From the IMG/VR virus record IMGVR_UViG_3300035698_018616: 64,000 nucleotides of DNA. The stretch is one strand, 5' to 3'. The notes beneath the pieces are model-generated. The model saw only the letters and a list, made by a program, of their open reading frames with translations, did not search any database and was not told where the DNA came from. The stretch comes from a virus. Shown piece by piece: positions 53,949-63,681 of the stretch. The number at the start of each line of letters is the position of its first letter. Position 1 is the stretch's first letter. The translations under genes and the position numbers were made by a program.

Positions 53949-54667
53949 CTCTAAAAATCTACACCCCTACTTCAATACTATACAAATTTTTCTATATCAC
54001 AAACGGTGCAACGCCAGCCTTTTGTAGTTACATTGTGTAATCTCTTTCCCTTGCCATATTTTTTGTCCTGGAAGTCAGATTTACAACGACATTTGCGAAC
54101 AGATGATCCATATTTTGCAGCATTCCTCAAATTTTTCATATCCTTAATCCTCCCTTTTCATCTATGTGTCATGATAACATTTGCAATACTTCTCAAATCT
54201 GAAGCCTTTTCTATGAAATGCTCTTCCACAAAGGTCACAGTTTCTTGTCGATCAACCCTATATTGATTTTCCGCTATCATCCCCTGTATCTCTGCTTTTA
54301 TAGCCTCTATCTCTGAATATTGAGCTAATAACCAAGATTCCATCATCATCCTCCTTTCTTCTGCACGGATAGCACAAATCGTAATAGTCTATCATGCTCA
54401 TCTTTGTAAAATGTGTCTCAGTTCCACACCTTCGGCATGTTGTTGATGTTGCCACTTTATTACCCCCTTTTCAACATCTCCATAATGAAATTTCCCATTT
54501 TTACTTCCGAAACATCTTGATTATAGAACTCTTTTGGGTCACGGTCAACCACTAAATGATACATAACATCTATTGAAGGTGGACCCTGAACTACACCACC
54601 AAACAGCTCTTCCATTACTTCTTTTTCATTCATAGTATCATCCTTTCCTTTATACAATTACATCCTT

Positions 54668-54831
54668 TTAATCGTTCTAAGGGACAAAAAGAATAACAAG
54701 TCACCACTCCTGTCAGGCAAGAATTGTAAGGCTGGTGTGACCTTCACATTCTTTGTACAGGGTCTCGCGGCCCCGTAACTACCACCTACGCACATCGCAT
54801 AGGATTCTTTTTACCCCCTTACAACGATTAA
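54668..54831 (-). ncRNA. Structured RNA A (paralog of B)
   Basis: ~27-bp closing stem TTAATCGTTGTAAGGG../..CCCTTAGAACGATTAA; internal hairpins; CCTGACAGG-AGTGGTGAC. Confidence 0.65.
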
Positions 54832-54833
54832 AA

Positions 54834-54921
54834 ATAGTGGTTCATCTTACACTATAACGGCGTGGACCGTTATACCAGCCCGACATGCAATGCAAGTCTC
54901 CCACCTCAGATGAACCACTAT
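54834..54921 (-). ncRNA. Structured RNA C
   Basis: Perfect 14-bp closing stem ATAGTGGTTCATCT/AGATGAACCACTAT; inner TATAACGG/CCGTTATA. Confidence 0.6.
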
Positions 54922-54927
54922 ATTTCT

Positions 54928-55121
54928 TTAACCTTTACAAGAGACAAAAGGGATGTAAACAGGTCGCCACTCCTATTAGGCTAAGATGTAAGATTGGCGT
55001 TTTTCTTACCTCTTGTGATACGTTTGGTCTTTCAGACTTCCGACCCCCTACCTCTCTTGGAGTAGACTTCCCATCCACCTCTCTGGAAGTAGGACCCCCT
55101 TTTGTCCCTTACAACGATTAA
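54928..55121 (-). ncRNA. Structured RNA B (paralog of A)
   Basis: Closing stem TTGTAAGGGACAAAAGGG/CCCTTTTGTCTCTTGTAA; CCTAC/GTAGG, GGTC..GAAA-GACC; CCTAATAGG-AGTGGCGAC. Confidence 0.65.
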
Positions 55122-55126
55122 AAAGA

Positions 55127-55209
55127 TGTGACCCTGTAAGCTCATTAGACTGACTGCGGTTATCACCCCGGCTGACTGCTAATTATTACTTACAGTTGAT
55201 ATGGTCACA
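55127..55209 (-). ncRNA. Structured RNA D
   Basis: TGTGACC/GGTCACA and CTGTAAG/CTTACAG nested stems. Confidence 0.55.
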
Positions 55210-55217
55210 AATTTTAC

Positions 55218-55397
55218 TTAACCTACAATCTCCCTACGAAGCTTTCCACCAGTCTTGATACGGACCTCACGATTGGTGTCAAGGTTAACTCCCATCCAGC
55301 CACCCCTGGAAACTTTACACAACAGCTTTACACGGGCCAATTTGCCAGAAACTTTCACAATGTAAGTTTTGCCTACAGACACATCTGCTTTTCTCAT
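55218..55397 (-). CDS. Small basic hypothetical protein
   Basis: GGAGA RBS; MRKADVSVGKTYIVKVSGK... Confidence 0.7.
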   Translation of the reverse strand: MRKADVSVGKTYIVKVSGKLARVKLLCKVSRGGWMGVNLDTNREVRIKTGGKLRREIVG

Positions 55398-55924
55398 ATC
55401 ACTTTCTCCTTTTTGTTTAAATTTAAGAGCTGAAACAAACCCTATCATGTAACAGGGCTTATGTCAACCCTCAAAAAATGAGGGTTTTTGAACTTTACTA
55501 AATGGTAATCATCTCAAAATCTTTCACTCTCAAACGGGTGGATTTCTGAACCAAATTTCCAACGAAACGTCTTGCGGATGTTTTACTAATGAACTTACGA
55601 GCGACCCTATCATTTGCCATTAAGACACGACCCTTTTTAGCCACAACACATTTCATTTTCTTCATATCACATTCTCCTTTTTGTTTAAATTATTCTCTCT
55701 CACAAAGACTGAAACCATTGTATCTCATGAACTCTGAACTGTAAATCAAAAATTAATCATCTTCTTCAATAAGCTCAAAACATTCAGGACATACAGTCCA
55801 CCACTTGGTCTCACCTACATAAGGATCACCATTTCGTTCTGTAAATCCTTCCTCTCCAGTCCATCCACAATTTTTACAAATATATAACATAATCCATCTC
55901 TCCTTTTAATTTCAGGTACTTAAA

Positions 55925-56058
55925 GGGGTTGTAAAGCGGAACCGGGTTTGTCTTCCTCTGGTGGCAATATCAACAGTCCATAGTATCGCAGTGATAAAGG
56001 TACTGGTATTGTCAGTTGGCAAAAGAAAATATAAACAGGTATTCTATTTTACAACCCT
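55925..56058. ncRNA. Structured RNA candidate
   Basis: GGGGTTGTAAA/TTTACAACCCT closing stem in non-coding DNA. Confidence 0.4.
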
Positions 56059-56514
56059 TATAACTATCTGAAATCTTTATGTTTTTGGTTGTGCTGACCG
56101 GTCAGACTTGGAAAAGGTTAATGAATTCAGGGTGTTACAATCCTACACTTCACTCAGCGCTAAGTTTTCTCGGATTGACCCACAGGACATCCATGGGTTT
56201 ATATGTAAACAGTTAAAATTGTTATGTTTTAAGTTGCTCTCTCAACAAACTAAATACATTGTATCACACAGATCAAAAACCGTAAACAGATTTAATTCAA
56301 TTTAAAAATCAGTGACTTACCAGACAAAAAACTTCAACATCAACTACGTCAATGGTACCATATATTTGAGGCTATGTAAACAGAAAAAATAATAGCTCTG
56401 GAGACCCTGACTACCACTGCATGGGAGACAGGGATACCCTCTGAGAGCGTGTAGGATTGACGTGGAGGGGTGTTCCAGACATGACTAAGGGGGTAGTATG
56501 GCTTGGGGGTGGCA

Positions 56515-56852
56515 TCCCACCTCGTTGATCTGAGGGCTCAATAATTTCAGGCGCTTACAGTGAATGGGATTCATTGTATACTGTATACTGTATACAGCTG
56601 TCTAAACGCCTGATTCCATTATGAGTCTACGGGTGGTACAGATAGACCTGGAGAGCGTCCAGGATCAAGGTGGATAGACGATCTAGAGTGAGCGTGATGG
56701 ATAGTGTGTCCTGGGACGCCGTCCCACCTCGTTGATCTGAGGGCTCAATGATTTCAAGCGCTTAGGGTGTAGGAAAATCCAACGGTGTATACGGTGTACT
56801 GTATACAGTATACAATCATGTAATTTCAGGCGCTTACAATGAATGTGATTCA
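56515..56852. repeat. Direct repeats of the divergence zone (43-bp x2; 31-bp x2; TGTATAC iterons)
   Basis: 56515-56557 vs 56722-56764 (2 mismatches); 56543-56573 vs 56822-56852; (tgtatac)3 at 56575. Confidence 0.9.
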
Positions 56853-62376: not shown

Positions 62377-62789
62377 ATGATGGGTGGATTTGATATAGGT
62401 GAACAATTTTTTCATATAGTGGAATTTGAGGTAGGTAAAAAAATTGATGCTTATTTCGAAACACCCGAAGGTAAAGAAGATATTGAGGGATTGGTAGAGT
62501 ATCTTCAAGACATAGAAGGTAACCTATATAAGCATCTGAAGAAATTGATAAAAAATGTTGAGGAGATGGAATAATGGGTGGGTTTAATATAAGTGAACAA
62601 TTTTTAAATTATGTAGAAGGGTCTGGTATAGGAGAAGGTTTAGATATCTATTGGAAAGATAAAAAAGGTAGAAAAGAGATAGATAAACACCTTGATGAAA
62701 TGGATAAAATAGAAAGTAGAATGAAGAAACTTGTGGGTATTCTCACGAAGAAAATAAATGATTTTATGGAGGTTAAAGATAATGAGTAA
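62377..62789 (+). other. Tandem paralogous small ORFs (62377-62574, 62574-62789)
   Basis: MGGFDIGEQF / MGGFNISEQF ... EG(K/R)E(D/E)I. Confidence 0.75.
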
Positions 62790-63681
62790 AAGTGATATAT
62801 GGACCTTCATACATGAACCTAAAGAATTTAAGGACCTAATTCTCAATAAGGACATAAAACCTAAGTTAAAAAAGGCACTTAAAGAGGTCCCTAATCTTCT
62901 ATTATATGGTAAACCTGGTGTTGGTAAGGGAACGTTTACCCATATGCTATTGAGGAAAACGGCTTATGATTATTTATGGGTTAATGCTTCTGATGATACG
63001 GGCATTGATACTATGAGGGATAAAATCAAATCGTTTGCTACTTCAATGGGCATAACACCCCTAAAGGTTGTTGTATTAAATGAAGCGGATTCACTTTCAT
63101 CAGGTCAGCAAGGTGCTCAAAAAATGCTGAGGCAATTGATGGAGGACGTTCAAAAGATTACCCGTTTTATACTACTTGCCAATTATGAACACCTATTCAT
63201 ACCTGAAATTAAATCCCGTTGTCAAGTTATAGAAATGTCAAATCCCCCTGGTGGAGAGATTTATAAACTTTGTGAAAAAATATTGAAATCCGAAAGAGTT
63301 AAATACGATAAGAAAACGTTGATAAATATAGTTAAAAAATGCTATCCTGATATAAGGAGCACAATTTGGGGCATACAAGGAAACACCATTAATAACGTGC
63401 TCAAAAGTGATATCATATCAAGGTCAGAAGAAGTATTCAAAGAAATTTTAGAGATGATAAAGAATGGTGATCTTGATAGTTTAAGAAAATCGTTAAGAAG
63501 TAATGTGATTGATTATATTGGTTTGTATGGGTTCTTATTTGATAATGCTGGGGAATTTAAGTCTCCAGGTGACGCTATTATAGAGATAGGGGAACATCTT
63601 TATAGGAATGATAGTATGGCAATAAAGGAAATCAACCTGATCCACATGGCAGTCAAAATGATGAAAGGAGGGGTAATATGA
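62782..63681 (+). CDS. Sliding-clamp loader ATPase subunit (T4 gp44 / RFC-small-like)
   Basis: PNLLLYGKPGVGKGT, NASDDTGID, NEAD, IKSRC, YPDIR. Confidence 0.92.
   Translation: MSKSDIWTFIHEPKEFKDLILNKDIKPKLKKALKEVPNLLLYGKPGVGKGTFTHMLLRKTAYDYLWVNASDDTGIDTMRDKIKSFATSMGITPLKVVVLNEADSLSSGQQGAQKMLRQLMEDVQKITRFILLANYEHLFIPEIKSRCQVIEMSNPPGGEIYKLCEKILKSERVKYDKKTLINIVKKCYPDIRSTIWGIQGNTINNVLKSDIISRSEEVFKEILEMIKNGDLDSLRKSLRSNVIDYIGLYGFLFDNAGEFKSPGDAIIEIGEHLYRNDSMAIKEINLIHMAVKMMKGGVI

Follow-up and report, generated by a model that had tools for sequence, protein, structure and literature searches.

Results

The 64,000-nucleotide (nt) stretch of viral DNA analyzed here (IMG/VR record IMGVR_UViG_3300035698_018616; hereafter the window) belongs to a large, uncultured phage. 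On its minus strand, downstream of a gene for a basic 59-amino acid (aa) protein, four stem-closed elements tile positions 55209..54662 in the 5′-to-3′ order D, B, C, A, with neighbors 0–5 nt apart (Table 1). The genes around these elements also lie on the minus strand, and because they run that way, we read the locus on this strand. An earlier note on this DNA, made from the sequence alone, had described four such elements, and they indeed lie where it placed them. Judged by sequence comparison, A and B are tandem paralogous genes of an uncatalogued structured RNA family (hereafter the family RNA).

The paralogy of A and B, also proposed in the earlier note, is upheld on the gene strand, with the two copies sharing 68% identity. 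The identical 5′ segment that had drawn attention to them, TTTTTAATCGTTGTAAGGG (19 nt), forms the 5′ arms of both and occurs at exactly two minus-strand sites (54816-54834 and 55106-55124), against a chance expectation of 0.07. The 3′ arm of A is an imperfect inverted copy of this segment, and a 3′ motif, CCTRAYAGGAGTGGYGAC, likewise has exactly two occurrences. The region of hairpin P2, defined below with the other helices, is larger in B than in A because it contains a 27–30-nt internal tandem duplication (repeat families D3 and D8; inner part 55034-55092).

We rejected a coding reading of the region on three grounds. The open reading frames (ORFs) overlapping 55209..54662 are short (34–78 aa) and show no conservation, in keeping with the earlier view that no credible ORF is present. 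A 45-aa minus-strand ORF within A has lost its ATG in the closest relative, the 93%-identical metagenomic locus L014, and the alignment of A with L014 contains two single-base gaps, in helices P1 and P2. Stop-free stretches in the family members are short, and their length differs from member to member.

Folding energies distinguish the two strands. A reaches -60.5 kcal/mol (z -4.55) on the minus strand and -50.1 kcal/mol on the plus strand, and B reaches -64.1 kcal/mol (z -3.62) and -48.9 kcal/mol (z -1.75), respectively, so that the minus-strand folds of these two elements are better by 10–15 kcal/mol. The corresponding values are -37.2 kcal/mol (z -5.0) and -31.6 kcal/mol for C, whose perfect 14-base pair (bp) stem was correctly described before, and -25.4 kcal/mol (z -3.1) and -21.5 kcal/mol for D. 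Among the paired cells of the model-fitted alignment introduced below, G-U combinations outnumber A-C combinations by 46 to 10. This excess, together with the worse plus-strand fold, points to the family RNA being a transcript of the window's minus strand.

To find homologues, we reached syntenic metagenomic contigs through the flanking ORF, originally called as 76 aa, and then through a 240-aa protein encoded 1.3 kilobases (kb) downstream; a protein search with the 59-aa protein returned nine homologous clusters, whose contigs we examined. Each of six distinct metagenomic loci carries one A/B homologue just downstream of the 59-aa gene, so that the window has two copies and each of these relatives a single one. 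Pairwise identity among the members is 43–70%, apart from the A–L014 pair; the flanking genes of the window and L011 share ≈70% DNA identity. Further contigs with the 59-aa gene held identical copies only. The window DNA itself is present in 24 salt-lake metagenome runs, no RNA run being listed among its carriers, and contigs from four of these have the identical sequence, with no variants and no joints.

A covariance model, R1, seeded by A and L014 only and with a structure drawn by hand, scored its seed A at 208.8 bits and found B at 53.8 bits (E 1e-15), as well as L020 (51.4 bits), L017 (49.5 bits), L025 (44.1 bits), and L011 (39.4 bits). No further R1 match emerged from the window, from 15 related loci, or from 100 loci of viral and genome collections chosen by a pattern of loop, P5, and loop partner. 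An nhmmer profile of the 3′ core recovered the same set plus L024. A blastn search found no match to the region among 50,697 phage records. Scans for exact matches to the 5′ arm, to the 3′ motif, or to a pattern combining loop, P5, and loop partner, run over viral contigs and once over genome contigs, gave chance matches only, which were dismissed by blastn or R1, with the sole exception of L042; this is the same record as L011 and was already known through its flanking protein. So far, the family appears confined to a small clade of large, tRNA-gene-rich T4-like phages from salt-lake, marine, and groundwater metagenomes.

The members share a consensus fold. Their ends pair in a closing stem, P1, of 14–28 bp (≈19–28 bp in seven of the eight members and 14 bp in L024), the outer part of which is free in sequence, and the inner ≈10 bp of which form a conserved purine/pyrimidine helix, GGUAAAGARA over UYUCUUUACC. 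P1 opens into a nearly linker-free four-way junction comprising P1, hairpin P2, a short helix Pj, and hairpin P5, with a near-invariant U after P2 and an invariant U after Pj. In Pj, GGU, GGGU, or GGUUU pairs with GCC, RCCC, or AAACC, and this helix leads to a three-way junction with an optional P3 and the long hairpin P4. P3 has a purine-rich loop (GCGA in A) and is missing from L024, whereas P4 comprises 10–12 layers, with a bulge or mismatch, and a loop of 7–10 nt. P5 is of the type GACAGG/CCUGUU with a loop of 5–8 nt and is followed by the 3′ strand of P1. At the place where the earlier note had drawn a CCTRAYAGG hairpin, a 3-bp CCU/AGG form does exist as a competitor, but the helix pair Pj and P5 is better supported.

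Compensatory change runs through this fold. MAFFT alone misaligned the 5′ halves, and the alignment used for counting was fitted to the model. Standard pairs fill 94.6% of its 428 pair cells (seven sequences), compared with 74.9% in shuffled alignments, none of which reached the observed value in 500 trials, and with 40–54% when the 3′ partners are slid by 1–3 columns. Changes on both sides are found in 47 of the 68 pairs, and every helix contains such pairs. The suggestion that the divergence between A and B is compensated is thus borne out by extensive covariation among the homologues in relatives. As far as sequence evidence goes, the comparative support is unusually clean for the family's size, and it is very likely that we are dealing with a real, conserved structured RNA family.

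A tertiary feature that is key to the fold, and missing from the earlier note, is a pairing between the loops of P4 and P5. In each of the eight members, a 5-nt stretch of the P4 loop is fully complementary to a 5-nt stretch of the P5 loop, with Watson–Crick pairs only. The loop codes are CACCA/UGGUG in A, L011, L017, and L020; CACUA/UAGUG in L014; CGCCA/UGGCG in B; and AGCCA/UGGCU in L025 and L024, amounting to four haplotypes, and three positions out of the five covary. Of the 173 aligned positions of A and L014, just 12 are different, including both partners of a single loop–loop pair (C-G to U-A). The codes of A and B, which reside in one genome, do not match one another. No conserved extension of the pairing beyond 5 bp was seen among the eight members. 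R1 does not include this pairing, so the bias of model fitting toward nested helices does not apply to it; because it is absent from the model used for alignment, we regard the predicted loop–loop pairing as the strongest single piece of evidence. A hand reading of all eight members gives ≈9–11 layers for Pj plus P5 and ≈10–12 layers for P4 with its non-canonical extensions. These matching lengths fit a P4 that folds back along a Pj–P5 stack of the same molecule, and the pairing is probably formed within one molecule.

The view of the locus as an array of four noncoding RNAs stands for A and B, holds in part for C, and fails to gain support for D. C has a counterpart at the same position in L014 (L014:1569-1654), in which the 14-bp stem is kept through two compensatory changes (C-G to U-A and U-A to C-G) and the hairpin beside the 3′ strand is retained, while the interior sequence is replaced; by blastn, the similarity of C to this counterpart is below detection. 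D has no detectable homologue in any related locus, and the relatives have unrelated stem-closed hairpins in its place, in the interval from the stop codon to the family RNA.

L014 has the C-like element and one A copy and lacks the D+B block (≈290 nt). In the window, this block is flanked by a 7-nt direct repeat, AGGTTAA, at 55224..55218 (the stop codon) and 54934..54928 (the end of the 3′ arm of B), and the L014 junction resembles the second copy. The absence of D+B from L014 and its repeat borders suggest that the window layout is a pair of modules, (D,B)+(C,A), an arrangement not recognized in the earlier note. It could have arisen either by duplication or acquisition in the window or by a short-repeat deletion in L014. 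Relatives also have extra, unrelated long-stem elements, either in the interval from the 59-aa gene to the family RNA or immediately past the RNA (L020:2805-3300, L025:1117-1236, and L024:690-830). Most of them fold well (L024:690-830, -54.9 kcal/mol, z -3.9), an exception being L020:3195-3300 (z +0.4). The locus acts as a gathering place for structured RNA modules.

Comparison with Rfam 15 agrees with the earlier note, in which the array could not be matched to a known family, neither A–D nor the homologues having a match. At gathering thresholds, the whole window yielded tRNAs and tmRNA only. With E values up to 10, the region gave only chance-level matches, either outside A–D or of 10.8 bits, and with E values up to 5, five homologous loci gave no match on the family RNA.

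The family RNA sits in the 3′ untranslated region of the conserved 59-aa gene. Read from its true start, the ORF called as 76 aa gives this 59-aa product, which has a net charge of ≈+12 and which AlphaFold2 models as a confident small β barrel (pLDDT 82) with structural matches to Tudor/PWWP/SH3-like domains. Its AlphaFold DB cluster matches include HARE-HTH names, although the name may not describe the matched part, and no Pfam family matches at an E value of 0.01 or below. The predicted Tudor/SH3-like barrel is generic and neither proves nor excludes RNA binding. Just upstream of the gene is a long hairpin (55419-55477, minus strand) with a counterpart at L020:2549-2612. It gives rise to a spurious mir-653 match, of 20.9 bits in the window and 34.3 bits in L020, whose presence in both suggests that the hairpin is conserved; since the 17 extra N-terminal codons of the 76-aa call overlap it, the hairpin favors the 59-aa start.

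We found no terminator-like site in 54200-56400, including the interval between the best promoter match (55745..55717) and the downstream ORFs. A weak promoter-like match within D (55210..55182, 9/12) was taken as chance, with 11 such sites found against 5.5 expected. In L011 and L017, just a ≈18–30-nt hairpin separates the stop codon from P1, which leaves little room for a promoter.

Elsewhere, the window encodes a T4-type clamp loader (62758-63681), ribonucleotide reductase, RNase H, RtcB, and an Rnl2-type ligase. A tmRNA gene and ≈27 tRNA genes lie at 23440-48955 on the minus strand, ≈6 kb from the family RNA. A 361-aa phage protein (799-1884, minus strand) matches the Druantia defense protein DruA (Pfam PF14236, E 4e-22). 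There is also a second repeated RNA-like motif, featuring an anti-Shine-Dalgarno-like CCACCTC(G/C)TTGATC and a conserved tail. Its two window copies (56514-56560 and 56721-56767, plus strand) are on the other strand arm, and in relatives it occurs between the A-type RNA and the next ORF (L011:5540-5590, L017:775-825, and L020:3655-3700). A complementary GATCAAGGTGG arm lies ≈55 nt upstream of the motif, at least at the second window copy.

Table 1. Features of the family RNA locus in the window and positions of the family homologues in related metagenomic loci.
Feature	Position	Strand	Description
Element A	54662..54836	-	Family RNA, 175 nt; P1 of ≈28 bp in three segments, then P2, Pj, P3 (GCGA loop), P4, P5
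Element B	54922..55126	-	Paralogue of A, 205 nt, 68% identity to A; P2 region enlarged
Element C	54834..54921	-	88-nt RNA (predicted); perfect 14-bp closing stem, two inner hairpins
Element D	55127..55209	-	83 nt, stem-closed hairpin structure, immediately 3′ of the upstream gene's stop codon
A P4 loop segment CACCA	54733..54737	-	5′ half of the loop–loop pairing
A P5 loop segment UGGUG	54702..54706	-	3′ half of the loop–loop pairing
B P4 loop segment CGCCA	54995..54999	-	A-U pair of copy A replaced by G-C
B P5 loop segment UGGCG	54965..54969	-	Partner of CGCCA
Family homologue	L014:1655-1827		93% identity to A; closest relative
Family homologue	L011:5260-5411		
Family homologue	L017:549-698		
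Family homologue	L020:3293-3484		
Family homologue	L025:1235-1393		
Family homologue	L024:564-673		110-nt mini version without P3
Upstream 59-aa gene	55218..55397	-	Strongly basic, Tudor/SH3-like β barrel; precedes the RNA wherever the RNA is found
Downstream 65-aa ORF	54460..54657	-	Ribosome-binding site starts ≈15 nt past P1 of A; same layout in L014
Best sigma-70-like promoter match	55717..55745	-	TTTACA-17-TACAAT; consensus match only

Discussion

We interpret the family RNA as a co-transcribed, stable, trans-acting structured RNA that is excised at P1 and has the adjacent protein as its first candidate partner, an interpretation to which we assign a probability of roughly 0.55. The RNA would be transcribed together with the 59-aa gene in a leftward operon running into the tRNA and RNA-repair region, and a double-strand-specific nuclease such as host RNase III would excise it at or near the long P1 duplex. 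The excised RNA would then persist in a stable and compact form, in which the intramolecular loop–loop pairing locks P4 alongside the stacked Pj–P5 helices, and would work in trans, binding protein as a scaffold or decoy. The 59-aa protein is the first candidate partner because it appears to be a basic barrel and because the RNA follows its gene at every RNA locus. C would be an accessory stem-closed module of the same transcript, and D probably would be too. The components of this proposal differ in strength: whether the RNA is processed and acts in trans is close to an even call, and a particle formed with the neighboring protein is doubtful.

RNase III substrates are regular duplexes of ≈20 bp or more, and P1 has a suitable length in seven of the eight members. 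This length is compatible with the proposal of the earlier note that an early, polycistronic noncoding RNA precursor would be processed at its terminal stems, for example by RNase III. The T7 early RNase III sites and the processing stalks of rRNA resemble the family RNA in having duplexes of at least 20 bp that bracket units in a polycistronic transcript. They are plain, often bulged hairpins or stalks that serve the cutting itself, however, whereas the duplex of the family RNA encloses a conserved domain with predicted tertiary structure.

Several observations weigh against this interpretation. We infer expression, RNA ends, processing, and stability from the DNA, and the P1 of L024, at 14 bp, is on the short side for an RNase III substrate. 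L027 has the 59-aa gene but no family RNA, and, judging by gene spacing, the same holds for one further contig, which makes an obligate protein–RNA pair doubtful. Within the fold, P5 is both ambiguous, in that the 3-bp CCU/AGG hairpin competes with Pj and GACAGG/CCUGUU, and the weakest helix, pairing at only 3–4 of its 6 positions in L025, L011, and L024. The pair counts rest on a model-fitted alignment, which favors nested helices, and on only eight distinct sequences from one phage clade that are related by descent. Lastly, the 5′ arm of B matches the 3′ arm of A over 30 nt at 93% but its own 3′ arm over 31 nt at only 77%, and the global minimum-energy fold of the whole region takes a nested B-C-A pairing. 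Because the 5′ arm of B fits the 3′ arm of A better, this nested fold is an alternative, and the A and B units may not be independent in folding.

The same operon setting would also suit a cis-acting element, whether an RNase III or stability punctuation site comparable to the T7 early R sites, which would let the cistrons on either side decay independently; an operator through which the upstream basic protein regulates its own synthesis; or a put- or EAR-like antitermination element, which would act on the transcribing polymerase so that the structured tRNA array downstream is read through. The RNA lies inside the operon between two small ORFs, with no terminator-like site found nearby (54200-56400), and P1 ends ≈15–25 nt ahead of the next ribosome-binding site in the window, L014, and L025. 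Long duplexes suit RNase III, and ≈29 tRNA genes and a tmRNA gene follow over 20 kb on the same strand. Yet a plain hairpin would be enough for processing or stability, whereas here the junction core, the 5-bp tertiary pairing, and the helix lengths are kept by compensation. Known put RNAs, for their part, consist of two simple stem-loops without a closing stem. The downstream neighbor varies as well, with L011, L017, L020, and L024 interposing structured elements and promoter-like sequence before the next ORF. On balance, a cis-acting role seems unlikely.

The loop–loop pairing, which the trans-acting interpretation places within one molecule, could alternatively join P4 and P5 loops of different molecules head to tail, producing dimers, rings, or cages in the manner of phi29 pRNA, ROOL, and GOLLD. 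The complementarity of the loops is strictly maintained and covaries, and the orthogonal loop pairs of A and B in one phage would be expected if cross-pairing matters. There is a precedent in the ROOL kissing loop, which was first read as tertiary from covariation but proved to be quaternary (bioRxiv 10.1101/2024.12.08.627333). Against such assembly, the hand-read length of Pj plus P5 roughly equals that of P4 in all eight members, as a fold-back within the same molecule predicts, and the family RNAs are far smaller than ROOL or GOLLD. We give self-assembly of this kind little credence. A broader idea is that the family represents a new class of small self-organizing phage RNA, either a miniature version of pRNA, ROOL, or GOLLD that forms intermolecular rings or cages or an RNA whose compact junction binds a host factor or signaling molecule with high affinity and sequesters it in early infection, the adjacent basic Tudor-like protein being the cofactor. 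This idea is only slightly less improbable; if it were true, the orthogonal loop codes of A and B would define two separate assemblies.

A P1-closed multi-helix junction pinned by a loop–loop contact is the architecture of purine, lysine, and other aptamer classes, and the RNA might accordingly bind a ligand, either as a riboswitch or as a free-standing sponge that takes up a small molecule, for example a nucleotide signal; tandem copies like those in the window would raise capacity. The few invariant unpaired nucleotides at the junction, namely the U that separates P2 from Pj and the one that separates Pj from P5, could be read in this light, but they are few indeed for a binding site. Even with E values of up to 5–10 allowed, neither the window nor the homologues match any riboswitch class of Rfam. 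A P1 of 19–28 bp is far too stable for switching, and even across its full range of 14–28 bp, the stem is very stable; there is no conserved terminator/anti-terminator or partner sequestering a ribosome-binding site, no terminator-like site was found, and the next ribosome-binding site lies outside P1. An aptamer is very unlikely.

Two further proposals we consider most improbable. The long terminal inverted repeats and the plasticity of the locus, seen in the absence of D+B from L014, its AGGTTAA borders, and the differing hairpin modules of the relatives, might suggest a DNA-level feature such as a miniature inverted-repeat element, a PeSL-type recombination cassette, an origin, or a packaging signal; but the terminal arms are the least conserved part and differ among relatives, while the interior helices and the pseudoknot-type pairing are kept by compensation, which is the reverse of a mobile element, there are no dispersed copies beyond those at this locus, and the G-U over A-C asymmetry is strong. 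Self-cleaving ribozymes commonly occur in the setting of compact, pseudoknotted junction RNAs located between phage genes, and a new one, cutting the operon transcript into units, might be sought in the CUGA-type motif at the junction; this motif varies, however (CUAA in B and CUGU in L017), very few invariant unpaired nucleotides are available for an active site, and no Rfam ribozyme model matches.

Among characterized RNAs, phi29 pRNA (RF00044) is similar in being a phage RNA of 120–174 nt whose ends pair in a long helix that leads to a multi-helix junction, with two loops whose complementarity covaries despite drift of the primary sequence. The family RNA differs in lacking an Rfam match, in having a four-way and a three-way junction rather than a single three-way junction, and in its 5-bp loop pairing, which is probably intramolecular; instead of a phi29-type podovirus, its host is a T4-like phage of large size that encodes a clamp loader and a tRNA array. 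ROOL and GOLLD share with it the character of orphan, ornate phage RNAs with covarying kissing loops, often near tRNA islands. At ≈580 nt and >800 nt, they are much longer than the 110–205 nt of this family, and the family RNA, again without a match to their Rfam models, lies ≈6 kb from the tRNA array.

The T4 rnaC and rnaD RNAs (stable RNA species 1 and 2) are, by annotation, likewise back-to-back small stable RNAs with a few nucleotides between them in a multi-gene transcript. We rejected them as relatives: run with filters off over T4 69000-75000, R1 gave at most 7.8 bits, with none of the top matches on these genes, and the matches that do overlap rnaC or rnaD scored at most 3.5 bits. rnaC ends in a tRNA-like T arm, neither RNA has a long closing stem, and both adjoin a tRNA gene, which the family RNA does not. 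YrlA-type Y RNAs resemble the family RNA in the long stem formed by their 5′ and 3′ ends, the structured module, the tandem copies, and the association with RtcB-type RNA repair genes, RtcB being encoded in the window. A Ro/Y-RNA system is nevertheless unsupported. All eight members lack both a tRNA-like T arm, GGUUCGAAUCC, and a D arm, neither ARAGORN nor the Rfam tRNA model reports anything at this site, and TROVE/Ro is absent from the 25 Pfam families listed of 34 matched by 40 window proteins.

The family is thus a new one of a familiar kind, namely the orphan structured RNAs of large, tRNA-rich phages. Such phages keep yielding structured RNAs of obscure role, as T4 rnaC and rnaD have exemplified for fifty years and ROOL and GOLLD have done more recently. 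At 110–205 nt, with a defined fold and a covarying 5-bp tertiary pairing, the family RNA is compact and tractable and would make a small target for RNA structural biology. Natural variants are already at hand in the L024 mini version and in two orthogonal paralogues within one genome, along with a conserved candidate protein partner. Should the RNA prove to be merely a processing or stability element, it would still document how long operons are punctuated in such phages. Otherwise, it may provide a handle on the early-expressed RNAs of phages that carry RNA-repair enzymes, tmRNA, and many tRNAs.

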